Shown: positions 21,172 through 45,212, numbered from the stretch's first letter. The stretch is 64,000 nucleotides of DNA from Eubacteriales bacterium (GCA_041653135.1 JBAZGB010000004.1:5528-69527); one strand, 5' to 3'. Notes: generated from the letters alone by a model not told the origin. A program made the numbers and translations.

Positions 21172-21776
21172 TTATATAAATTTAGAATGCGAAAAAATTA
21201 AAGAAGTTTTTTCGATTGAAGAGGAATTTCAGAATGGGTGTAGAATATAATACATGTACAATTAAATATTACAATTTTCGAGCCTTGGAACCTACGGTAA
21301 ATACTATGGATCTAAGGCCGGTAGAGTGTAGCTGGAAATGGCTGTGCTTCCCGATGCGGAAAGAAAATTGGTAATTTTTTTTGAGGTATTCGGGCTAAAC
21401 TATTTAAAGTTTAGCTTTTTTTAACCAAATAAAAAGCCAGTTGTCTTTTCGGGCATATGGCTTTTATTAATGTAAGATGTCTTTGCAAAATACGGCACGA
21501 CGGTCTAAATCCTTAATGATAGAGTGGTTTTATTAAAGCTGTTCACGTGTTTTTGCTTTTTAAGTTTACTTCCCTATTTCCATGTGACGAGAGCAGTTTT
21601 TTAATAAGCTGCTCCTTTTTTTAACACACTAGAAAAATTAGACAGGTAAACATAAGAAAAGGGCAGGGGTTTCTTACGGAAACCGCCAACCCTTTCCATT
21701 ACACAAAATTTGATATGTCTCCCGGTTTTTTCAGAATAACATCTATTTCACCATAGTTTTCTGAAATAACTTTTGA

Positions 21777-24773: not shown

Positions 24774-24849
<76 letters not shown>

Positions 24850-35995: not shown

Positions 35996-36607
35996 TTGTT
36001 ATCCCAACTCACCCCCCGTGAACAGCAGATACTTGACGTTATAAAAAGGATAATTCAAGTTAAGGGGTATCCCCCGTCCGTCAGGGAAATCGGCCAGCTT
36101 GTCGGCCTGAACTCAAGTTCTACAGTACATGGCTATTTACAGCGCCTTGAACAAAAAGGTTTTTTGCACCGTGATTCGAGCAAGCCCCGTGCCCTGGAAC
36201 TTACAGGCGCCCCGCCAAGGCTCCAAAACACCACTGTTCATTATGTGCCGGTTTTGGGCAGGGTTTCTGCGGGCGATCCTTTTCTGGCTGTCGAAAATCC
36301 GGAGGAAGTCATGCCTGTTCCGGTTGAACTGACAGGCCAGGGCGAATTTTTTCTCCTCAGGGTACATGGAGAAAGCATGATCAAATCGGGTATTCTGGAT
36401 GGGGATCTGGTAGTCGTTCGACGCCAGCAGACAGCTGATAATGGTGATATAATCGTTGCCTTGCTTGGTGAAGAAGTTACCGTAAAACGTTTTTTCCTGG
36501 AGGAAGATCATGTCCGGCTTCAACCCGAAAACGATTTGCTATCCCCTATCATTGTTAAAGATATTAATATATTAGGTAAAGTTACTGCCCTGCTGAGGAA
36601 ACTATAA
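35996..36607 (+). CDS. lexA: LexA repressor
   Basis: The sequence includes LTPREQQILDVIKRIIQVKGYPPSVREIGQLVGLNSSSTVHGYLQRLEQKGFL and the Ala-Gly cleavage region VLGRVSAGDP. The S24 peptidase residues are in GESM...VVVRRQ...GDIIVA. Confidence 0.9.
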   Translation: MLSQLTPREQQILDVIKRIIQVKGYPPSVREIGQLVGLNSSSTVHGYLQRLEQKGFLHRDSSKPRALELTGAPPRLQNTTVHYVPVLGRVSAGDPFLAVENPEEVMPVPVELTGQGEFFLLRVHGESMIKSGILDGDLVVVRRQQTADNGDIIVALLGEEVTVKRFFLEEDHVRLQPENDLLSPIIVKDINILGKVTALLRKL

Positions 36608-37876
36608 TTTTACTTTACCGGATTTCCTTGCATCCTGCTTTACATTAAGCACTTTTCTGGCTGCGTTTAAAACTGCTATCTTAACATATTCTTTTGATAA
36701 ACCACCCTGCATGTAAACAATATATGGTTCCCTCAAAGGCGCATCAGCGCTTAGTTCTGAGGATGCCCCCTGGATGAAGGTCCCGGCAGCCATAATTACT
36801 TTATCCTGATAACCGGGAAGGTTTGAGGGCTCCGGGCGCACATAAGAGTCTACCGGCGAGGCTTCCTGTATACCAATGCAGAAGGCTTGTACACGTTCCG
36901 GCGCCCCAAGAAAGATACGCTGCACTATATCAGTCCGGGGTTCATCGTAAGCTGGAGAGACATCAAAGCCTAACCTTTCAAAGAAACGGGCTGTAAAAAT
37001 TGCGCCTTTCAGCGATTCTGCCACAGTATGCGGCGCCAGGTACAGTCCCTGATACAACAGCCGTTGAAAATCGGGCGACGGGCCCACTTCTTTGCCAATA
37101 CCCGGTGCGGACCACCTTCCTGCAGCCACTTCCACGAGATCCTTACGCCCTGCAATATAACCCCCGCTGGGAGCCAATCCCCCGCCGGGATTTTTGATCA
37201 GTGAACCAGCAGTTAAATCAGCGCCTGCCGCAGGTGGTTCAATTTCCTCAACAAATTCTCCGTAACAGTTGTCAACGCAGGTAATTATACCCGGGCGCAA
37301 TCTCTTAACAAACAAAATCAGCTTTTTCAAGTCTTCAATTCTTAAAGAACGATGGTTTGAATAACCTGAGGAACGCTGTATTAAAAGCATCTTTGTTCGC
37401 GGATTAACCGCTTTGGTTATGGAGTCCCAATCAAGTTCTCCGTCCCCGCCAAGTTCTGCCTGACGGTAAACAACGCCAAGATCCTTAAGGCTTCCTTCGG
37501 CGCCGCCTTTAACCCCGATAATCTCCTGAAGTGTGTCGTATAAAGGACCCTGAACGGATAAAAGTTCATCGCCAGGGCGCAGGACTCCAAAAAGACAAAT
37601 CGCTATTGCATGGGTGCCGCTTATAATTTGTCCTCTGACCAGAGCATCTTCCGAACCAAAGATCATGGCGTAAAGCTTTTCTAAAGTATCACGCCCCTGA
37701 TCGCCGTAACCATAACCTGTTGTACCGCGTAAATGAAAATCACTTACTTTTAAATTTCGAAAAGCTTTCAATACCCGGGAATGATTTATACCCGCTTTTT
37801 TGTCGGCTTCACGGTATAATGGTTGAATCTCTTCTTCAACTTCATTGACAAGGTCTGTCAGATCTTTAATTCCCAT
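36602..37876 (-). CDS. ynbB: YnbB-type PLP-dependent enzyme (aluminium-resistance / Met-gamma-lyase-like family)
   Basis: The sequence is VLKAFRNLKVSDFHLRGTTGYGYGDQGRDTLEKLYAMIFGSEDALVRGQIISGTHAI, which is characteristic of this family as recalled. Confidence 0.75.
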   Translation of the reverse strand: MGIKDLTDLVNEVEEEIQPLYREADKKAGINHSRVLKAFRNLKVSDFHLRGTTGYGYGDQGRDTLEKLYAMIFGSEDALVRGQIISGTHAIAICLFGVLRPGDELLSVQGPLYDTLQEIIGVKGGAEGSLKDLGVVYRQAELGGDGELDWDSITKAVNPRTKMLLIQRSSGYSNHRSLRIEDLKKLILFVKRLRPGIITCVDNCYGEFVEEIEPPAAGADLTAGSLIKNPGGGLAPSGGYIAGRKDLVEVAAGRWSAPGIGKEVGPSPDFQRLLYQGLYLAPHTVAESLKGAIFTARFFERLGFDVSPAYDEPRTDIVQRIFLGAPERVQAFCIGIQEASPVDSYVRPEPSNLPGYQDKVIMAAGTFIQGASSELSADAPLREPYIVYMQGGLSKEYVKIAVLNAARKVLNVKQDARKSGKVKL

Positions 37877-38136
37877 AAACTGTTTCTCCCGGTTTCACCT
37901 ACTGGATTTCCCTTAAAAATCATGTGCAGAACCTGGGGTTCAGTTGGAAGCTTTTCCTTTAGCCTCCTTTTCTGAATCTCTACAAAGGCAGATATCTCCG
38001 CAACCAGCTTTTTTATTTCCTGTAACCCGACCAAGGAATCCAACTCGGTTAATACATGTTCAACATTGGGAAAATTACAATCCGGGTTTTCAGTCTTTTT
38101 TTTGCCGTTGTTCTGCCACAGCCTAATCCTCATCAA
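37858..38136 (-). pseudogene. spoVK: N-terminal fragment of a SpoVK-type AAA+ ATPase gene (truncated just before Walker A)
   Basis: LTELDSLVGLQEIKKLVAEISAFVEIQKRRLKEKLPTEPQVLHMIFKGNP matches the SpoVK N-terminus. The expected GTGKTT is replaced by VGETGRNSLWELKI*. That sequence is in fact the ynbB RBS/start region read in another frame. Confidence 0.6.
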
Positions 38137-38216: not shown

Positions 38217-39011
38217 TTAAAACCTGGCTGAGAGCAGAGATTCCTCACACGAGCAGTTTCTTTTGCCGGGTATTGCTTCAATGGCTGCGTATAACAGGTC
38301 TCTAAGCCGGTCGTTGTTTTCATTAAAGACTTTAAAAACCTCTTCATGGCTTACCGGGTTGATGAACTCTTCCCCTTCCAGGCCCACGTCATAATCGGTG
38401 ATTAAAGATATGTTTACATAACAGATTCCCAGTTCACGGGCCAAGATTGTTTCGGGATATTGGGTCATGTTAATTACTTCCCAGCCCATTTTCGTAAACC
38501 AACGGCTTTCCGACCGCGTAGAAAAGCGGGGTCCCTGGACGACGACTACGGTTCCCTGCTCATGCAGAGATAAACCGAGTTCCTTGCCCTTGTCGATGAC
38601 AAGTTTACGCATTTCCGGGCAATAGGGATCGGCTGCTCCGATATGGGTTGTAATGGGACCATCATAGAAGGTATCCCCCCTGCCCCATGTCCTGTCTACG
38701 AACTGGCCGCAGATTACAAAGTCTCCTCTTCTAACGCGGGCTTGAAGGCTCCCCGCCGCGCATGGCCCGAATATCCTGGTTACACCCAATTTAGACATCG
38801 CATAGACATTAGCCCTGTAATTGATCATGTGGGGCGGTATGGTATGTTCCTTTCCATGCCGGGGCAAAAAGGCAATCCGTTTACCTTTGAAATCAGCTAT
38901 GGCTATCTTGTCACTCGGCGGTCCATAAGGGGTCTCGATTTTATATTCCTTTACGTTATCAAGAAAATGGTAAAAACCAGAACCTCCAAAAATACCTATT
39001 TCGGCCTCCAT
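38217..39011 (-). CDS. mtnP: S-methyl-5'-thioadenosine phosphorylase (MTAP family), copy 1
   Basis: Track ORF runs to 39086. ATG 39011 follows GAGAGGTG. The sequence is IGIFGGSGFY...PYGPPSDKIAIADFKGKRIAFLPRHGKEHTIPPHMINYRANVYAM. Confidence 0.85.
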   Translation of the reverse strand: MEAEIGIFGGSGFYHFLDNVKEYKIETPYGPPSDKIAIADFKGKRIAFLPRHGKEHTIPPHMINYRANVYAMSKLGVTRIFGPCAAGSLQARVRRGDFVICGQFVDRTWGRGDTFYDGPITTHIGAADPYCPEMRKLVIDKGKELGLSLHEQGTVVVVQGPRFSTRSESRWFTKMGWEVINMTQYPETILARELGICYVNISLITDYDVGLEGEEFINPVSHEEVFKVFNENNDRLRDLLYAAIEAIPGKRNCSCEESLLSARF

Positions 39012-39051
39012 GGTTTCACCTCTCAAAAAGTTTTTAAAACTATGATAAATT

Positions 39052-39597
39052 TTACTCCTTGTATTGCAGCAGTGAAAAGATATCATACTGCTGGAGCTTG
39101 TCCCTTCCGTTCAGCAGGGCGAGTTCGATTAAGAAAGCGAATCCGTTGACCCTGCCCCCGCATTTTTCAACAAGATCAGCTGCTGCGGCGGCTGTTCCGC
39201 CTGTGGCTAAAAGGTCGTCAATTATAACTACTCCTTCTTCCTTATTGAAGACGTCCATGTGCATTTCCACGGATTCCTGCCCATATTCCAGGAAGTAGCT
39301 CGCTTTTACTGTTGCAGCAGGTAATTTTCCTTTTTTGCGGACAGGAAGGAAAGGGACTTTGAGACGATCAGCAATTGCTCCGCCAAAGATAAAACCCCGG
39401 GATTCAATAGCTACTATGGCCTCCGCATTTTTTTGAATGCAGTATTCGGCAAGCATATCGTTTACCTGGCTAAAAAGAGGCCCATCCTGCAAAAGGGTTG
39501 TTATATCCCGAAAAAGGATCCCCTTTTTTGGAAAATCAGGAATCGCCCTTATTTTATTCTTCATAATATTTTCTTGCTCAGGAGTCATATTCACCAC
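39052..39597 (-). CDS. apt: Adenine phosphoribosyltransferase
   Basis: The sequence is IRAIPDFPKKGILFRDITTLL...VVIIDDLLATGGTAAAA (PRPP motif). The start is uncertain between 39588 and 39597. Confidence 0.9.
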   Translation of the reverse strand: MVNMTPEQENIMKNKIRAIPDFPKKGILFRDITTLLQDGPLFSQVNDMLAEYCIQKNAEAIVAIESRGFIFGGAIADRLKVPFLPVRKKGKLPAATVKASYFLEYGQESVEMHMDVFNKEEGVVIIDDLLATGGTAAAAADLVEKCGGRVNGFAFLIELALLNGRDKLQQYDIFSLLQYKE

Positions 39598-39617
39598 TTA
39601 CACCTCTCATTATTTTT

Positions 39618-40862
39618 TTAGGTCCCGGATTGCCAGGAGCCGAGATATTCCACTTGCTCGGCAGTCAGCGACTCGATTTTCACACCGAGGCTTTCCAATT
39701 TTAATCGGGCTACCAGGGAATCAATTTCTTCCGGTACCGGATAAACCTTTTTTTTCAGCTTTTTTTGGTTTTTGACAAGCCAGGCTGAAACCAGAGCCTG
39801 GTTAGCAAAGCTCATGTCCATAACCTGCGCAGGGTGCCCTTCCGCCGCAGCAAGGTTAATCAGGCGTCCCTCGGCCAGCAAAAAGAGCTTTCTGCCGTCC
39901 GCCATTTGATACTGGACGACATTCTCCTTAACGTCTTTTTGCTCTACCGCTTCCTGGGCTAAAGCTTCAATGTTGATTTCTACATTGAAATGGCCTGAAT
40001 TGGCCAGGATGGCCCCGTCTTTCATAACTTCAAAGTGCTTGCGGTCAATAACATTTTTATTGCCGGTTACAGTGAGAAAAATATCCCCTGCAGTTGACGC
40101 GTCTGTCATATCCTTTACCTGAAAACCATCCATCAAAGCTTCGAGGGCTCTTAAAGGATCTACTTCAACGACTGAAACATTTGCCCCCATTCCTCTTGCT
40201 TTGGCAGCGACGCCCTTTCCGCACCATCCATAACCTACGACAACAAAATTTGTTCCGGCAATGAGGTAGTTGGTAGAGCGTAAGATCCCGTCAAGTGATG
40301 ATTGACCGGTCCCGTACCGGTTATCAAAAAGATGTTTGGTAAGTGCGTCATTTACAGCAACAATCGGATATGCTAAAGCGCCGCTTTTTTCCATGGAACG
40401 CAGCCTGATCACTCCCGTGGTTGTTTCTTCAGTTCCTGCCAGAATATCCTTAAGGAGTTCTTTTTTCTGGGTATGGATTGTGCTTACCAAATCAGCTCCG
40501 TCGTCCATGGTGATTTGAGGCGCCGTATCCAAAACGTTCAGTATATGCTGGTAATATGTACTTGTATCTTCACCGCGTTTGGCGTAGGTGGGAATTTCAT
40601 AAGCGCTGTTCAGTGCCGCTGCAACATCGTCCTGTGTGCTCAAGGGATTTGAAGCGCACAGGGAAACTGAAGCCCCTCCTTCTTTTAAAGCTATGACCAG
40701 ATTTGCAGTTTCGGTTGTAACATGCAGGCATGCTCCGATCCTGATTCCCTTTAAAGGTTTTTCCTCTTTCCATTTTTCCGCTATTGCGCTTACGACAGGC
40801 ATCTTTATACGAGCCCAATTAATCCTGGCGACACCTTTTTGCACAAGCTCTTTTTTAGTCAT
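39618..40862 (-). CDS. ahcY: Adenosylhomocysteinase (SAH hydrolase)
   Basis: The 414-aa protein contains LKGIRIGACLHVTTETANL, DDGADL and the NAD site VVGYGWCGKGVA, plus HFNVEI. Its start overlaps the upstream stop (TGATG). Confidence 0.9.
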   Translation of the reverse strand: MTKKELVQKGVARINWARIKMPVVSAIAEKWKEEKPLKGIRIGACLHVTTETANLVIALKEGGASVSLCASNPLSTQDDVAAALNSAYEIPTYAKRGEDTSTYYQHILNVLDTAPQITMDDGADLVSTIHTQKKELLKDILAGTEETTTGVIRLRSMEKSGALAYPIVAVNDALTKHLFDNRYGTGQSSLDGILRSTNYLIAGTNFVVVGYGWCGKGVAAKARGMGANVSVVEVDPLRALEALMDGFQVKDMTDASTAGDIFLTVTGNKNVIDRKHFEVMKDGAILANSGHFNVEINIEALAQEAVEQKDVKENVVQYQMADGRKLFLLAEGRLINLAAAEGHPAQVMDMSFANQALVSAWLVKNQKKLKKKVYPVPEEIDSLVARLKLESLGVKIESLTAEQVEYLGSWQSGT

Positions 40863-41245
40863 CAGATAACTCCTTTTATTAAAAAAGTCTTTAAATCACA
40901 GAAGTACTTCAGCTGGCAGATATGCTCAACCGAACAGGTGTAAACGTACGCCTGTTCAAGTGTCTCACCGGCGGCAAAAATACCATGTCCCTTTGTTATT
41001 GCCGCCTTATGATTAACAAGAGCGTTTGCAGCGTTTCCTTTTTGAATATTTACCTCGACCAGCATTTGTTCATTAATTTCATCTAAAAGGCAGCCGCTTT
41101 TGGTGATCAGCAGTGTATCCCCTCTGCGCATACTAATATTTCCAAAATGTGAGTGGTTCAAGCCATAAGCCACTAACTTTTTTCCGTATTTTTCTATCTC
41201 CTGCCACATGTAAAATTCCACCATACCCTTAACGCTGACACTCAA
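40862..41245 (-). CDS. Shortened class II aldolase/adducin-domain protein (central region absent; possibly non-functional)
   Basis: The N-terminal region is HFGNISMRRGDTLLITKSGCLLDEI and the C-terminal region is GHGIFAAGETLEQAYVYTCSVEH. The protein is only 127 aa against ~200 aa typical, so the stretch that normally carries the Zn-binding His residues is missing. The start may be at 41224 or 41209. Confidence 0.55.
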   Translation of the reverse strand: MSVSVKGMVEFYMWQEIEKYGKKLVAYGLNHSHFGNISMRRGDTLLITKSGCLLDEINEQMLVEVNIQKGNAANALVNHKAAITKGHGIFAAGETLEQAYVYTCSVEHICQLKYFCDLKTFLIKGVI

Positions 41246-42257
41246 TAATTACTTTTACAGAATCCCGACCGGAAACGACATGCTGAAAACCGGTTCCCGT
41301 ATCCGAAAGTCCCAGCCGGTGGGTGATCATATCTTTTAGGTTAATCCTCTTGTACTGAATTAATTTCAGCGCTGTCCGATAGTCTTCAGGCGAACCTGCG
41401 TAAGAAGTTGTGAGAGTAATGTCTTTTCTCCAGAAAAGATCGTTTATGGAAAGCGGTATTGTAACATCCGGACCGGTGGGTGCAAAAAATAACACTGTAC
41501 CTCCCCGTTCTACCAGGCTGAGCGCCTGCATGACAGCTGTGGTTGCGCCTGTGCATACAATAACCAGGTCCGCAAGGCGGTTGTCGTTGTTCCGGCGAAG
41601 GCAGAGAGATATATCCTGATCTGCAAAGATACTGCAATCGGCGCCCAACAGGCGTGCTTTTTCGAGCCTGAAACTGTTTGTATCCGTTGCTAGAATAAAT
41701 CCGGCCCCCATTATACGGGCAAGGTTGATATGCAACAGTCCGGCCGTCCCGCTGCCCAGGACGAGTACGCACTGGCCCTGCCGCAAACGGGCATTCCTTT
41801 GGGCGCGCAGTACGCAGGCTAACGGTTCAACAAAAGTCGCCTCTTCAAAAGATACGTCCGGCGGCAGAAGAAAAACGCCCCTGTCGACATTGATTGAAGG
41901 TATGCGGGCATATTCGGCAAATCCGCCCGGGTCTATGTTAGTCTGATGAAGAGTGTCGCAGGCGGTTTGGTGGCCGGATAAACAGTAGTGGCAAGTATTG
42001 CAGGGGACGTGGTGTGCAATTACAACGCGGTCCCCTTTCCTGAACCGGCTTACCTTGCCGCCTGCTTCGGCGACATCCCCGGCCAGTTCATGGCCTAAAA
42101 CGAGCGGTACCTTATGCAGCCTGTACCATTCCATAACATCACTGCCGCATATGCCGCATGCCTGAACCCGCACCAGCAGTTCATCCTGGCCAATAGCCGG
42201 CACAGGTCTGTCTTCAATGCGGATATCTTTATTGCTGTAATACGTTGCTACACGCAA
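41229..42257 (-). CDS. Zinc-dependent medium-chain alcohol dehydrogenase
   Basis: Motifs are VQACGICGSDVMEW, GHELAGDV, the structural-zinc cluster CNTCHYCLSGHQTAC, and the Rossmann motif VLGSGTAGLL. Confidence 0.85.
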   Translation of the reverse strand: MRVATYYSNKDIRIEDRPVPAIGQDELLVRVQACGICGSDVMEWYRLHKVPLVLGHELAGDVAEAGGKVSRFRKGDRVVIAHHVPCNTCHYCLSGHQTACDTLHQTNIDPGGFAEYARIPSINVDRGVFLLPPDVSFEEATFVEPLACVLRAQRNARLRQGQCVLVLGSGTAGLLHINLARIMGAGFILATDTNSFRLEKARLLGADCSIFADQDISLCLRRNNDNRLADLVIVCTGATTAVMQALSLVERGGTVLFFAPTGPDVTIPLSINDLFWRKDITLTTSYAGSPEDYRTALKLIQYKRINLKDMITHRLGLSDTGTGFQHVVSGRDSVKVIIECQR

Positions 42258-42279
42258 TTGCCTGGCTCTCCTGTTCTTC

Positions 42280-43086
42280 TCAGCCTTTTTTTATTTGTTC
42301 TTCTTTCCCGGCGCTGAAGATTTCAAAAGCTTCTTTTGCCGTGGCATTATTGTGGATAATAGCCCGGATAGCCTTAATCATTGGGACCGGAAAATCTGAT
42401 TGCCATATATTTCTGCCCATGTCAACTCCCCTGGCCCCGCAGGAAATAGCGCTATGCGTCAACTCAAGCACGTCGAGTTCGGTTTCCAGTTTGGGCCCGC
42501 CCGCAATGACAACCGGAACGGGGCATCCCTGGACGACTTTTTCAAAGTTGTCACAGTAATATGTTTTTACCATGTGGGCGCCAAGTTCGGCGGCAATCCG
42601 GCAGCATAAAGACAAATAGCGAGAATCTCTTTTTTCCAATCCCTTGCCTACTGCGGTTACAGCAAGCACAGGTATCCCGTATTCTTCCCCCTCGTTTACC
42701 AGGGCGGAAAGGTTTAAAAGAGAATCATGTTCATAGTCGGTGCCTACGAAAATTGACAGTCCAACGCCGCACACATTCAACCGGACGGCGTCGCGAAGAG
42801 AAGTTGTTATCCCCTCATTGGCCAGGTCTTTGCCAACAACACTTGTTCCTCCTGAAACCCTTAAAACTATCGGTGTACTGGTTTCATCGCTGACGGAAGA
42901 CCTCAGGACACCTCTGGTAATAAACAGGGCATCGCAATAAGGAAGAAGCGGCTCTATAGTTTGGCCCGGGTTTTCCAACTTATTTGTTGGCCCTAAAAAA
43001 TAACCGTGGTCCACTGCCAGCATTACCGCACGACCAGATTCAGGTTTGAAGATCTGAGAAAGCCGGTTTTTCATTCCCCAGTCCAT
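42280..43086 (-). CDS. Class I aldolase of the DhnA/FbaB/LsrF (DeoC-like) family
   Basis: The sequence is GRAVMLAVDHGYFLGP...ALFITRGVLRS...VGTDYEH...GAHMVKTYY (candidate Schiff-base Lys)...VVIAGGPK...GARGVDMGRNIWQ. Confidence 0.8.
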   Translation of the reverse strand: MDWGMKNRLSQIFKPESGRAVMLAVDHGYFLGPTNKLENPGQTIEPLLPYCDALFITRGVLRSSVSDETSTPIVLRVSGGTSVVGKDLANEGITTSLRDAVRLNVCGVGLSIFVGTDYEHDSLLNLSALVNEGEEYGIPVLAVTAVGKGLEKRDSRYLSLCCRIAAELGAHMVKTYYCDNFEKVVQGCPVPVVIAGGPKLETELDVLELTHSAISCGARGVDMGRNIWQSDFPVPMIKAIRAIIHNNATAKEAFEIFSAGKEEQIKKG

Positions 43087-43140
43087 CTTACTAACCCCTC
43101 CTAAATTTTTATAATTCTACCCTGAAAATTAACTTGTATT

Positions 43141-43320
43141 AGGGAGGTCAACTGTCTACGTGCTCATGTTCGCCTCTTATACTTGTACGAACTCGCTCAC
43201 CCTCGGGCTCGTTCAAAACTCGGCGGCTTATGCGCCTCAAACAATTCCCTCGCTTAACCTCGGGTTCACTTGTTCTTTGAATGAAGGCTTAAAAATCGCA
43301 CTTAAGGCATTGACCTCCCT
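43141..43320. repeat. 180-bp intergenic element bounded by a perfect 11-bp inverted repeat (MITE-like or structured leader)
   Basis: AGGGAGGTCAA at 43141-43151 pairs with TTGACCTCCCT at 43310-43320. Internal sub-repeats are CCCTCGGGCTCGTTCAAAACTCGG and CCTCGGGTTCACTTGTTC, plus local hairpins. Confidence 0.4.
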
Positions 43321-43389
43321 TTATTGATGAATTTCCATTATCCTGATAGCGCTGTATTAGTGGCATGGATGTCTAACTGTGGAATCACT

Positions 43390-44427
43390 CTATCCCACAA
43401 TCGAAGCCAGATTTTTATCGTATGGCGGTGTGACCACCCCGCGCTCCGTTATAATGGCGGTGATTAGGATGTTTGGTGTTACATCGAAGGCGGGGTTCCA
43501 TACTTTTACTCCTTCGGGCGCAATCATATGGCCTGAAAAATATGTTACTTCAAGATGACTTCTTTCTTCTATCGGGATATCTTTCCCTTGCTTTATTCTT
43601 AAATCTATAGTTGAAACAGGCGCGGCGACATAAAAAGGTATTTTATGTTCTCTGGCCAGCAGGGCAACTCCGTACGTGCCTATCTTATTGGCCGTATCAC
43701 CGTTTGACGCTATCCTGTCAGCGCCTACGATAACCAAATCAACCATCTGTTGAGCCATCAGACTTGCCGCCATATTATCAGTAATCAGTGTAACAGGTAT
43801 TTTTTCCTGGATCATTTCCCAGGCGGTAAGCCTGGCGCCCTGTAAAAGAGGTCTTGTTTCATCTGCAAAAACACTTATTTCTTTTCCTGCTTCTTTTGCG
43901 GCCCTGATTACACCCAGCGCAGTTCCGTAACCTGCTGTAGCAAGCGCGCCTGCATTACAGTGGGTTAAAATCCTTGCCCTGTCTGGAATCAGCTTTTCTC
44001 CATAGTTTCCGATGGCTTTATTGGCGCTTATATCCTCTGATAAAATTGCGTGAGCTTCCTGAAGAAGCATATTTTTCAGTTGCGCAGGGGCAAGTGAGGC
44101 CGCATTCGCCTCATTCATTTTTTGCAGCATACGTTCCAAAGCCCAGCGCAGGTTTACTGCAGTTGGGCGGGTAAGCCACAATTCCCGGGCTATATTTTTC
44201 GCTTCCGCTATCAAATCTTCGCCAGTGTTAAATTGTTGCTCTGATAAGCCCAGGACAAGGCCATAAGCCGCGGCTACACCGATGGCCGGCGCTCCCCTGA
44301 CGCTTAAATTACTGATCGCTTTGGCAACCGTCTGGTAGTCTTTACATTCTATGTACTCCACTTTTTGCGGAAGCATGGTCTGATCAAGCAGCAGTAATGA
44401 ATCTTTTTCCCAGCGCATTGTATCCAT
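43390..44427 (-). CDS. mtnA: Methylthioribose-1-phosphate isomerase (eIF-2B-like family)
   Basis: Track ORF runs to 44469. ATG 44427 (MDTMRWEKDSLLLLDQTMLP) overlaps the upstream stop as TAATG. Other motifs are VRGAPAIGVAAAYG, THCNAG, ETRP..QGARLTAWE and GADRIA.NGD.ANKIGTY. Confidence 0.85.
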   Translation of the reverse strand: MDTMRWEKDSLLLLDQTMLPQKVEYIECKDYQTVAKAISNLSVRGAPAIGVAAAYGLVLGLSEQQFNTGEDLIAEAKNIARELWLTRPTAVNLRWALERMLQKMNEANAASLAPAQLKNMLLQEAHAILSEDISANKAIGNYGEKLIPDRARILTHCNAGALATAGYGTALGVIRAAKEAGKEISVFADETRPLLQGARLTAWEMIQEKIPVTLITDNMAASLMAQQMVDLVIVGADRIASNGDTANKIGTYGVALLAREHKIPFYVAAPVSTIDLRIKQGKDIPIEERSHLEVTYFSGHMIAPEGVKVWNPAFDVTPNILITAIITERGVVTPPYDKNLASIVG

Positions 44428-45212
44428 TAAGTTGGTTCTCCCCTCGTTAGGGATTCCTGACACGAACATGCCCGTGAAAGATCCAGAACTTCAATCGTTT
44501 TTTGCAAAAGAGCATTTACTTTTACGGCGTTCCGGGTCATAGTGTCAACAACTTCATTATGTGAAAGCGCACGCATTGATAAAATACCGGCCGCAAAATT
44601 TGTGATCAGAGCAATTGCAGCATAACAGATTCCTGCTTCTCTGGCCAGGACCGCTTCAGGGATGCCTGTCATACCGATAACGTCTCCGCCTAAAGACCTG
44701 TACATGCGTGTTTCAGCAGGTGTTTCATACCTTGGACCTTCAGTACATACATATGTTCCGCCATAATGGCAGGCCAGTCCGAGCTGCTTGGTGGTTACAG
44801 CAAGCAATCTGCGCAAGTGTGTGCAATACGGAGCTGTCATGTCCAGGTGGAGCACTTCTTTTTCCTGAAAGGTTTGCGGCCGTGACCTGGTAAAATCTAA
44901 AAACTGGTTTACGAGAACAATTTCTCCGGGTTTTAAATCTGTGCTTAAAGAACCGACAGCGGCTATGGCCAAGATAGCTTTTACGCCCAAAATCTTTAAG
45001 CTCCATATATTTGCCCTGTAATTGACAAGGTGAGGAGGCACTGTATGCCCTTCGCCATGGCGCGCAATAAAAACAACCTCCTTGTCATGCAGACGGCCTT
45101 TATTAAGAAGTACCTGCCCGTAGGGAGTATCCAGTACCGCCTTTTGGGGGTTTTCAAGCATTCCGGCATTATAAATTCCAGTGCCGCCGATAATACCAAC
45201 AAGTTCTGCCAT
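44427..45212 (-). CDS. MTAP-family nucleoside phosphorylase, copy 2
   Basis: The sequence is VGIIGGTGIY...TPYGQVLLNKGRLHDKEVVFIARHGEGHTVPPHLVNYRANIWSLK. It is a paralog of 38217..39011. Confidence 0.85.
   Translation of the reverse strand: MAELVGIIGGTGIYNAGMLENPQKAVLDTPYGQVLLNKGRLHDKEVVFIARHGEGHTVPPHLVNYRANIWSLKILGVKAILAIAAVGSLSTDLKPGEIVLVNQFLDFTRSRPQTFQEKEVLHLDMTAPYCTHLRRLLAVTTKQLGLACHYGGTYVCTEGPRYETPAETRMYRSLGGDVIGMTGIPEAVLAREAGICYAAIALITNFAAGILSMRALSHNEVVDTMTRNAVKVNALLQKTIEVLDLSRACSCQESLTRGEPT

Follow-up and report, generated by a model that had tools for sequence, protein, structure and literature searches.

In the DHAP shunt for 5-deoxyribose disposal, known from Rhodospirillum rubrum, E. 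coli ATCC 25922 and Bacillus thuringiensis, MtnP (or MtnN plus MtnK) and MtnA/DrdI precede the class II aldolase Ald2/DrdA (PMC6079011, PMC10986504). For Methanocaldococcus, aldolases of the ADH synthase (MJ0400) and DKFP pathway type have been tied to what becomes of 5-deoxyribulose-1-P, as cited in PMC6079011 and PMC6302742. LsrF of the E. coli and Salmonella lsr operon (PDB 3GKF, 3GLC, 4P2V) is a CoA-dependent thiolase with DHAP and acetyl-CoA as products, according to the account of Marques et al. 2014 given in PMC8016206. The E. coli annotation of LsrF is likewise that of a thiolase. Its established substrate, P-HPD (3-hydroxy-2,4-pentanedione-5-phosphate), is by structure 4-dehydro-5-deoxyribulose-1-P, and to our knowledge the LsrF thiolase is the only characterised member of its family.

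Here we analysed a 64,000-nt stretch of DNA from an Eubacteriales bacterium (the window), which holds a cluster for SAM by-products (Table 1). Within this cluster, a Zn dehydrogenase (ADH) and an LsrF-like enzyme form a widespread, unstudied pair that probably finishes the salvage of SAM waste by a route not yet described.

Table 1. Features of the SAM by-product cluster, in transcription order (window coordinates).
Feature	Position	Strand	Details
MTAP paralogue a, mtnP-type	44427..45212	-	261 aa; TIGR01694 282 bits (cut-off 275)
MtnA isomerase (5-methylthioribose-1-P / 5-deoxyribose-1-P)	43390..44427	-	TIGR00512 465 bits; NF004326 479 bits
Spacer, 303 nt, with MITE-like repeat	43087..43389	.	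repeat ~43116-43334
LsrF-like class I aldolase-fold enzyme (DeoC/LsrF-type)	42280..43086	-	268 aa; NF006081 393 bits
Zn-dependent medium-chain dehydrogenase, polyol/threonine-dehydrogenase type (ADH)	41229..42257	-	342 aa
Class II aldolase remnant (ald2/drdA-like, 187-aa type)	40862..41245	-	profile positions 60-139 missing
AhcY (S-adenosylhomocysteine hydrolase)	39618..40862	-	414 aa; TIGR00936 614 bits
Apt (adenine phosphoribosyltransferase)	39052..39597	-	181 aa; TIGR01090 213 bits; NF002636 224 bits
MTAP paralogue b	38217..39086	-	NF005876 337 bits (cut-off 306)

All nine features of the initial annotation lie on the minus strand where it had placed them, and its reading of the run as a DHAP-shunt-type cluster is supported. 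The entry steps match those of the shunt: a phosphorylase-type mtnP with mtnA, genes for adenine and SAH recycling, and DHAP as the expected product. Both MTAP paralogues, 39% identical to each other, exceed MTAP equivalog cut-offs, in keeping with the MtnP variant of the shunt. Paralogue a also passes the MTI phosphorylase model NF006599 (251 bits, cut-off 223), and by these profile scores it may act on 5'-methylthioadenosine or 5'-deoxyadenosine, and possibly on methylthioinosine too. Paralogue b likely starts at M26, giving about 264 aa, the length at which its orthologue is called in the sister contig L096. The isomerase is clustered with the phosphorylase, as in the shunt, and is present once in the genome. 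Its coupling to mtnP through TAATG holds, the stop/start overlap being real; the longest MtnA ORF extends to 44469, and translation likely begins at the ATG within that overlap (44425-44427).

The cluster departs from the shunt in that its pathway-defining class II aldolase is inactivated. As had been suspected, the aldolase is crippled: the remnant matches the Pfam profile only at positions 1-59 and ~140-182 (of 183), and it has lost both the catalytic Glu and the HxH metal ligands. Comparison with an intact 187-aa orthologue (P0122), 93-97% identical in the retained parts, reveals a clean in-frame deletion of 216 nt (72 codons) between two 9-nt microhomologies, with its junction at 41021-41029. 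The lost block includes the ..SSET.. and VHVHS segments of P0122, and positions 10190-10396 of L096 are missing from ald2 here, with a 9-nt overlap. The remnant more likely comprises 115 aa from M13 at 41209 than 127 aa. The junction recurs without differences in a 6278-nt Logan contig from run X1, the only run that spans it and possibly the MAG's own sample; the deletion is seen in one population only. None of the RNA runs searched for the stretch contains it.

We searched the whole assembly (2.9 Mb, 94.8% complete) for other fates of the MtnA product. The reported lack of mtnB/C/D/W holds assembly-wide, the only PF00596 matches being the two halves of the ald2 remnant; the 2.9-Mb assembly likewise contains neither a RuBisCO-like protein (RLP) nor ARD. 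Universal methionine salvage through MtnB/C/D or MtnW/X is thus left with no intact PF00596 member, RLP or ARD. Because intact class II aldolase, MtnB, RLP and ARD are all missing, no other enzyme known to use the MtnA product is present, and by gene content the LsrF-like enzyme and the ADH are the sole remaining candidates for its consumption. Radical-SAM domains are matched 33 times in this genome.

The initial annotation had labelled the putative cleavage enzyme a DhnA/LsrF-type class I aldolase. It is an LsrF orthologue and no generic DhnA aldolase: its score lies well above the curated equivalog cut-off of 297 bits, and the active site is kept. Its identity to E. coli LsrF is 53%, and it falls below the cut-offs of two ADH synthase profiles (199 and 183 bits against 241 and 299) and of the archaeal FBP aldolase profile (133 bits). 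Among DhnA-type enzymes it is nearest to LsrF, which also leads in the PDB (292 bits, against 141 bits for MJ0400). In the alignment, D26, H27, K174, Y176 and G196 correspond to LsrF D57, H58, K203, Y205 and G226, and G197, D222, M223, G224 and R225 to G227, D251, M252, G253 and R254, the ligand and catalytic residues of E. coli LsrF named in PMC2728841. This set includes the catalytic Lys203 and Asp57, the LsrF-specific Asp251 and the phosphate site formed by His58, Gly226, Gly227, Gly253 and Arg254. The named residues are invariant in 121 homologues, save Asp251 to Asn and Met252 to Leu in six. ADH synthase (MJ0400) and the DKFP pathway aldolases of methanogens share the DhnA-type class I aldolase fold; unlike the protein here, ADH synthases have Ala in place of Asp251 and use Tyr. 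From this conservation, we propose that the LsrF-like protein is a P-HPD thiolase.

The surroundings differ from those of the lsr operon. A genome tblastn with E. coli K-12 Lsr proteins matched LsrF alone, with no LsrK, LsrG, LsrB or LsrR, and LuxS was not found in the genome; neither an lsr operon context (LsrK, LsrG, LsrACDB, LsrR) nor an AI-2 source accompanies the enzyme. AI-2 cannot be the origin of P-HPD in a genome that lacks LsrK, LsrG, LsrB, LsrR and LuxS, and P-HPD would instead derive from 5-deoxyribulose-1-P. The partner is a Zn dehydrogenase rather than the LsrG isomerase, and the LsrF-like family, unlike lsr LsrF, is spread through archaea and many anaerobic bacterial phyla.

The closest solved structures to the ADH are ketose reductase/sorbitol dehydrogenase, threonine 3-dehydrogenase, galactitol-1-P 5-dehydrogenase and xylitol dehydrogenase, each of which oxidises a secondary alcohol group in a sugar, a polyol or threonine. 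The ADH carries Cys37 and His56-Glu57, a structural Zn site of four Cys (86/89/92/100) and a Rossmann motif GSGTAG followed by ..ILATD, in which the Asp after beta-2 suggests an NAD-type cofactor. We propose that the ADH is a 5-deoxyribulose-1-P 4-dehydrogenase, a substrate assigned from chemistry and context only.

From these features we infer the dehydrogenase substrate, the order of both steps, the use of CoA and the products of the cassette, as follows. MTAP would free adenine, recycled by Apt, together with 5-deoxyribose-1-P or methylthioribose-1-P, and MtnA would produce the ribulose-1-phosphates. The NAD-type Zn dehydrogenase would then oxidise the C4 hydroxyl, converting 5-deoxyribulose-1-P to CH3-CO-CHOH-CO-CH2OPO3, that is, P-HPD. 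The Schiff-base lysine of the LsrF-like enzyme would mediate transfer of the acyl group to CoA, releasing DHAP and acetyl-CoA; with MTA as the starting material, the products would be DHAP and putative (methylthio)acetyl-CoA. No free aldehyde would form. A two-gene cassette would thereby take over the terminal step of the phosphorylase-type shunt from the class II aldolase, with an oxidative, CoA-dependent exit that yields acetyl-CoA instead of acetaldehyde and alcohol. We lean towards this sequence of C4 oxidation to P-HPD and LsrF-type cleavage as somewhat better supported than not. Its logic resembles that of L-threonine 3-dehydrogenase and 2-amino-3-ketobutyrate CoA ligase (Tdh/Kbl), in which a related dehydrogenase converts CH3-CHOH- to CH3-CO-, after which CoA-dependent cleavage of the resulting beta-dicarbonyl-type compound gives acetyl-CoA; unlike Tdh/Kbl, the substrate here would be a sugar phosphate and the cleavage protein is a Schiff-base TIM barrel, not a PLP enzyme.

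The initial annotation had the steps in the opposite order, with the ADH as an aldehyde reductase after cleavage. The LsrF-like protein would then be a true class I (Schiff-base) aldolase that splits the ketose-1-phosphates into DHAP and acetaldehyde or methylthioacetaldehyde, which the Zn-ADH reduces to ethanol or methylthioethanol. The fold, the Schiff-base lysine and the general-base aspartate are indeed class I aldolase traits, and the gene context and the reciprocal losses described below fit equally. We nevertheless regard this order as unlikely, since the protein scores as LsrF rather than as FBP aldolase or ADH synthase, retains Asp251 and has a thiolase as its sole characterised relative. 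The relatives of the ADH are secondary-alcohol dehydrogenases of sugars, polyols and threonine, not aldehyde reductases, its apparent NAD-type motif fits oxidation, and one would not expect an aldehyde reductase to be the obligate partner of the LsrF-like gene in 60 of 80 loci from two domains. In the known DHAP shunt an alcohol dehydrogenase does act last, after aldol cleavage, yet clusters of that shunt are defined without an aldehyde reductase (PMC10986504). The type of the ADH and its pairing with the LsrF-like gene across phyla thus fit a dehydrogenase acting before C-C cleavage better than a reductase acting after it, and we consider aldol cleavage with subsequent aldehyde reduction the less likely of the two mechanisms.

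Operation of the same pair in the reverse chemical direction, or as a redox isomerisation, is also conceivable. A single reduction can turn P-HPD into either 5-deoxyribulose-1-P or a 1-deoxypentulose-5-P, so that reducing the carbonyl beside its phosphate-bearing carbon would give a DXP-like 1-deoxy-pentulose-5-phosphate. Radical-SAM waste, or acetyl-CoA and DHAP, would then feed isoprenoid and vitamin precursors, comparable to the RLP-dependent MTA-isoprenoid shunt, whose RLP is absent from this genome. This argument is one of chemistry, and we give it hardly any credence. The cassette is commonest in archaea (Nitrososphaeria and Thermoplasmata, for example), which use the mevalonate route and make thiamine and PLP independently of DXP; moreover, this reading asks one dehydrogenase to work at two positions and leaves the ever-present LsrF-type cleavage enzyme without a role.

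Comparison with relatives shows how the aldolase and the cassette have been exchanged. The sister contig L096 is collinear with the window (~89.5% nucleotide identity) save for the cassette block, of 2141 nt, and the loss of 216 nt from ald2. At the same site, sister genomes G001-G004 hold the canonical mtnP-mtnA-ald2 trio, in the order mtnP-mtnA-ald2(intact)-ahcY-apt-mtnP and without the cassette. All four retain relics of the ADH 3' end (..KVIIECQR*), 15-61 nt long, before ald2, from which it follows that the genus ancestor had both cassette and aldolase; the relic end points are non-nested, so the cassette deletions were independent, at least two in number. Read from these remnants, the sisters deleted the cassette and kept ald2, and the genome here did the reverse. 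A strain in run X4, 91-93% identical, carries the cassette and an undeleted ald2 together. The replacement of the aldolase suggested initially is therefore supported as functional displacement by reciprocal loss, but the cassette is not a newcomer that took over from a broken aldolase: both were present together in the genus ancestor, and other genera and one related metagenomic strain have them together to this day. Most cassette genomes of this order retain an intact class II aldolase directly beside the cassette, and cassette and aldolase might complement each other, for instance by each serving one substrate, instead of being equivalent. The ald2 deletion itself may be a lesion of recent date, neutral or slightly harmful, and not proof of redundancy.

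Beyond the genus, we examined 80 LsrF-like loci, defining the cassette as an ADH co-directional with and within 300 nt of the LsrF-like gene (22 nt here). Such a pair is present in 60 of the 80 loci. In the paired loci, the hosts include Nitrososphaeria, Thermoplasmata, Omnitrophota, Dadabacteria, Acidobacteriota, Spirochaetia and Clostridia, among others, with thaumarchaeal partner ADHs merely 33-40% identical to the one here. The ADH is the only LsrF-like neighbour conserved across phyla. Linkage to mtnA and mtnP, in contrast, is not general: most of the 80 loci have neither gene within 10 kb, in most phyla the cassette adjoins neither, and in 31 of the 32 cassette genomes checked an MtnA above the curated cut-off is encoded elsewhere in the genome. 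The 32 are dominated by two archaeal lineages and not phylogenetically independent, and MtnA is common anyway, occurring in 8-9 of 14 control genomes. A class II aldolase-family gene is present in only 10 of the 32.

This scattered linkage would fit a cassette that is unrelated to SAM by-products and serves another phosphorylated diketone or ketose, such as a different 1-phospho-ketose or P-DPD/P-HPD formed through pentose-phosphate damage. Its cluster position and the ald2 deletion would then be chance events in a genome with many deletion scars. The stretch bears other scars (a truncated spoVK-like ORF and repeat insertions), and the deletion is confined to a single population. We consider such coincidence quite improbable. 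At least four gene orders from distant lineages, that of the window included, place the cassette among SAM-salvage genes or next to them: mtnP-lsrF-adh-mtnA-ald2-ahcY-apt-mtnP-deaminase in G031 and L008-L010, ald2-lsrF-adh-deaminase in G005 and G008, and a further arrangement within a SAM-salvage cluster of an Aenigmatarchaeota (L089). MtnA is nearly constant among cassette genomes, and in 22 of the 32 there is no class II aldolase family gene whose product could use what MtnA makes. Alone in the order, the genome here, itself a cassette carrier, has only aldolase fragments; a single full-length class II aldolase is encoded in 38 of 41 genomes of the order, and those without any, three in number, are 61-89% complete. 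LsrG, LsrK and LuxS, as noted, are missing.

The gap of about 300 nt reported between mtnA and the LsrF-like gene is present but not empty, as it contains a MITE-like dispersed repeat with inverted termini (GGGAGGTCAA / TTGACCTCCC). An Rfam search of the repeat matched no family. Against its own genome, the repeat gives 87 blastn matches, of which 13 near-full copies were aligned, and in four metagenomes its depth is 200-6800x, against ~8-14x for the flanks. The related strain in run X4 has merely 34 nt at the spacer site.

The salvage genes form a single co-directional run, as called from an ORF listing combined with Pfam and NCBIfam profile scans of the window. All nine items that the initial annotation had placed in this minus-strand run were found, including the coupling of the first phosphorylase gene to mtnA through overlapping stop and start codons. 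The run lies downstream of FtsY and RNase III and upstream of a Met-gamma-lyase-like gene and LexA, in a Desulfotomaculum-like MAG of 2.9 Mb that is 94.8% complete. Of the two mtnP paralogues, MTAP-a also scores above the NCBIfam methylthioinosine-phosphorylase cut-off, and judging from these profiles the pair may divide adenosine-type from inosine-type substrates. In related genera (G005 and G008, loci L097/L098; G031, locus L099), an MtaD/DadD-like amidohydrolase, a putative MTA / 5′-deoxyadenosine deaminase, directly follows either the second MTAP or the cassette, as we term the adh and lsrF gene pair. A search of the window's genome for this deaminase with the L008 protein as query gave no match.

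Features of the salvage cluster and other elements of the window
Feature	Position	Strand	Basis or remark
MTAP-a	44427-45212	minus	Pfam/NCBIfam
MtnA	43390-44427	minus	TAATG stop/start overlap; Pfam/NCBIfam
Spacer mtnA-lsrF	43087-43389		303 nt; dispersed repeat
MITE-like repeat within spacer	43116-43334		
DeoC/LsrF-type protein	42280-43086	minus	Pfam/NCBIfam
Zn-ADH	41229-42257	minus	Pfam/NCBIfam
Short class II aldolase	40862-41245	minus	Pfam/NCBIfam
AhcY		minus	after short class II aldolase in run; Pfam/NCBIfam
Apt		minus	after AhcY in run; Pfam/NCBIfam
MTAP-b	38217-39086	minus	Pfam/NCBIfam
Segment without counterpart in L096	37901-38185		~283 nt
Short ORF	37858-38136	minus	92 aa
PF06838 'Met_gamma_lyase'-family (YnbB-like) gene	36602-37876	minus	immediately after salvage cluster
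tRNA	24777-24849		
Molybdenum/tungsten cofactor riboswitch	21264-21382		RF01055, 71 bits

The DrdA-like class II aldolase gene (ald2) lacks 72 codons, which correspond to positions 10190-10396 of L096, a contig of the same-genus sister G003, plus a 9-nt overlap. Its kept parts are 93-97% identical to an intact orthologue of 187 aa (P0122), and the shortening, probably to 115 aa, is an in-frame deletion flanked by microhomology. The lost block contains ..SSET.. and ..VHVHS.., in which we see the Glu that serves catalysis and the two His that bind the metal in FucA/DrdA-type enzymes, and the earlier description of this aldolase as crippled thus holds. For DrdA, PMC6079011 refers to Glu76. A 6278-nt Logan contig from metagenome run X1, which may be the source sample of the MAG, spans the deletion junction with 0 differences and therefore rules out a MAG-assembly artefact; the deletion is known from a single population. 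Across 41 genomes of the order, 38 encode one full-length class II aldolase and three have none, at completeness values of 61-89%; the window's genome is the only one with fragments as its sole PF00596 hits, and the cassette is present there. Searches of its own assembly found no intact aldolase or MtnB, no RuBisCO-like protein (RLP) and no ARD, the dioxygenase of methionine salvage. This bears out the initial remark that mtnB/C/D/W-type genes were not visible and leaves the cassette as the only candidate consumer of the MtnA product in this genome.

The LsrF-like protein reaches 393 bits against the NCBIfam LsrF equivalog (cut-off 297). The ADH-synthase models (199 and 183 bits) and the archaeal FBP aldolase model (133 bits) stay below their cut-offs. 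The label 'DhnA/LsrF-type class I aldolase' therefore narrows to an LsrF orthologue. Solved structures give 292 bits for LsrF, 141 for MJ0400 and 88 for the T. tenax FBP aldolase, and the alignment with E. coli K-12 LsrF shows 53% identity. All residues named in the LsrF structure paper (Asp57, His58, Lys203, Tyr205, Gly226/227, Asp251, Gly253 and Arg254; PMC2728841) are kept in the window protein. Among 121 homologues the active-site residues are invariant, save that Asp251/Met252 are replaced by Asn/Leu in six. The Asp251 position presumably stands in for the catalytic Glu/Tyr of other aldolases, and the Asn-Leu proteins (GVNLGRN vs GVDMGRN), which include that of locus L004 in G008, may constitute a functional subtype. 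LsrF itself, as Marques 2014 is summarised in PMC8016206, is a CoA-dependent thiolase that converts 3-hydroxy-2,4-pentanedione-5-phosphate (P-HPD) to DHAP and acetyl-CoA, and the RefSeq product name of the E. coli K-12 protein agrees with this function. Unlike the setting of E. coli LsrF, the window's genome lacks the lsr/AI-2 system: searches of the assembly returned no LsrK, LsrG, LsrB or LsrR, and no LuxS.

The partner dehydrogenase has the catalytic Cys and His-Glu and a four-Cys structural zinc site, and its Rossmann motif (GSGTAG, then ..ATD) suggests a preference for NAD. Its nearest solved structures are ketose reductase / sorbitol dehydrogenase, threonine 3-dehydrogenase, galactitol-1-phosphate 5-dehydrogenase and xylitol/arabinitol dehydrogenases, relatives that oxidise secondary alcohols of sugars. 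Chemical reasoning links the two enzymes, as oxidation at C4 turns 5-deoxyribulose-1-P (CH3-CHOH-CHOH-CO-CH2OP) into CH3-CO-CHOH-CO-CH2OP, the structure of P-HPD. Because this product is the LsrF substrate, we propose that the ADH would act first, forming P-HPD from 5-deoxyribulose-1-P, and that LsrF-type thiolysis would then release DHAP and acetyl-CoA; on the methylthioribulose-1-P branch, the product would be methylthioacetyl-CoA. Threonine dehydrogenase and the CoA-dependent ligase that acts after it have the same logic. Every radical-SAM enzyme yields 5′-deoxyadenosine, which inhibits radical-SAM enzymes, and 33 radical-SAM domain hits in the genome assure its supply.

The initial annotation had instead proposed cleavage by an aldolase followed by an aldehyde reductase. 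Such a scheme needs the same genes as the oxidative route, but the LsrF orthology of the cleavage enzyme, the subfamily of the ADH and the obligate pairing of the two make it less probable in our view; the chemistry is likely otherwise. With oxidation and thiolysis as the preferred route, the cluster is likely a DHAP shunt variant with undescribed exit chemistry. In our full-text searches of the literature, no paper connected the DHAP shunt, 5-deoxyribulose or methylthioribulose with LsrF or with a class I aldolase. A published E. coli K-12 complementation system exists for the DHAP shunt pathway (PMC10986504).

Over more than 20 kb the window aligns collinearly with L096 at ~89.5% identity, with two exceptions in the cluster: a 2141-nt block (spacer, lsrF and adh) is absent from L096, and ald2 carries its deletion in the window. 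All four same-genus genomes (G001-G004) have the order mtnP-mtnA-ald2-ahcY-apt-mtnP with intact ald2 and without LsrF, for which reason a recent insertion of the block into the mtnA-ald2 spacer was first entertained; relics of the ADH 3′ end in this spacer of all four sisters rule it out. G002 retains 61 nt of the ADH end with 155 nt of the window's spacer, G004 32 nt, G003 (L096) 15 nt, and G001 19 nt from farther upstream with a degraded tail. The relics encode the ADH terminus ..KVIIECQR and stop, kept in cassette ADHs of other phyla. They imply the ancestral order mtnA-lsrF-adh-ald2, and since the end points in G001 and G002 are not nested, the cassette must have been deleted independently at least twice. 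By this reconstruction, the genus ancestor had both exits, cassette and aldolase; the sister species dropped the cassette and kept the aldolase, and the window's genome did the reverse. Such reciprocal loss supports the earlier suggestion of a non-orthologous displacement of the cleavage step and argues that the two exits are parallel solutions to one problem, not successive steps. An intermediate strain with both exits persists in metagenomes: run X4 holds a 91-93% identical strain with cassette and undeleted ald2, in which only 34 nt separate mtnA from lsrF and the contig leads from adh across the 5′ part of ald2 to '..SSETIVHR'. Run X3 contains the cassette form (2000-nt contig, 98% identical) plus the empty-site form. 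The cassette slightly exceeds its flanks in GC and GC3 (0.49-0.52 vs 0.45-0.47), a difference that is not decisive.

Homologues at ~70% identity occur in Peptococcaceae, Acidobacteriota, Aminicenantia, Nitrospirota, Dadabacteria, Omnitrophota, Chloroflexota, Nitrososphaeria, Thermoplasmata and others. A homologous ADH gene lies co-directionally within 300 nt of the lsrF-like gene at 60 of 80 genome loci, and unbiased neighbour clustering recovered the ADH at 68 of 82; the same clustering found no other partner kept across phyla at these 82 loci, only lineage-specific synteny such as ilvB/ilvN/leuA in Nitrososphaeria. The cassette of ammonia-oxidising archaea (L020, L022 and other Nitrososphaeria) is syntenic with genes for the large and small subunits of acetolactate synthase and for isopropylmalate synthase and dehydrogenase, a neighbourhood that probably reflects lineage synteny, not function.

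At most of the 80 loci the cassette has no adjoining mtnA or mtnP. Co-occurrence was seen for MtnA genome-wide, above the curated cut-off in 31 of 32 cassette genomes tested (a small, phylogenetically clumped sample), and physical linkage is usually absent. A class II aldolase-family protein of any kind is encoded in only 10 of the 32, a sample with the same limits, and the MtnA product is therefore without a known consumer in most of them. Where the cassette lies near SAM-salvage genes, gene order differs between lineages: mtnP-lsrF-adh-mtnA-ald2(222 aa)-ahcY-apt-mtnP-deaminase in G031 and L008-L010, ald2-lsrF-adh-deaminase in G005 and G008, and mtnA-adh-x-lsrF adjoining apt, mtnP and ahcY in an aenigmatarchaeote. 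The recurrent placement among salvage genes, together with the profiles of MtnA and aldolase, speaks against a cassette role unconnected to SAM waste, small and clumped as the samples behind these profiles are.

We tentatively propose, with rather less than even confidence, that the cassette is an ancient oxidative, thiolytic exit of 5′-deoxyadenosine (possibly also MTA) salvage, widespread in archaea and bacteria and leading from 5-deoxyribulose-1-P through P-HPD to DHAP and acetyl-CoA. For most archaea and many anaerobes, the disposal of the 5′-deoxyadenosine sugar is a gap in the known metabolism. An aldehyde-free route would close this gap in lineages with MtnA but without class II aldolase, RLP or MtnB; it would apply to the 22 of 32 cassette genomes checked that have no class II aldolase-family protein. 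If the proposal is true, the very common 'AI-2 thiolase LsrF' annotation would be corrected, thousands of 'autoinducer-2 thiolase/aldolase' names being wrong in organisms without an AI-2 system. A housekeeping pathway would have supplied enterobacteria with their AI-2 degradation step (LsrF), because LsrG happens to yield the same intermediate, and this would explain how that step of AI-2 processing arose. The genus would then present class II aldolase and cassette exits sorting out through reciprocal loss.

A MITE-like dispersed repeat, about 230-270 nt long, lies in the spacer between mtnA and lsrF; it has inverted ends (GGGAGGTCAA / TTGACCTCCC) and CTCGG/CGAG-rich repeats inside. The genome holds 13 near-full copies and dozens of partial ones, and in four unrelated metagenomes the repeat has a depth of 200-6800x vs ~10x for its flanks. 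The sister genome's mtnA-ald2 spacer also has a fragment of a variant copy. A search for a riboswitch or other regulatory RNA in the spacer gave no Rfam match at gathering thresholds and only one hit at chance level (E = 0.85); promoter and terminator scans gave no signal exceeding shuffled expectation.

The PF06838 gene also follows the cluster in L096 (13366-14613), and a tie to the methylthio branch is conceivable. Between MTAP-b and this gene, the short ORF, encoded by the segment that L096 lacks and single-copy in the genome, resembles the N-terminus of SpoVK/CbbX-type AAA ATPases over residues 29-79 and looks like a gene fragment.
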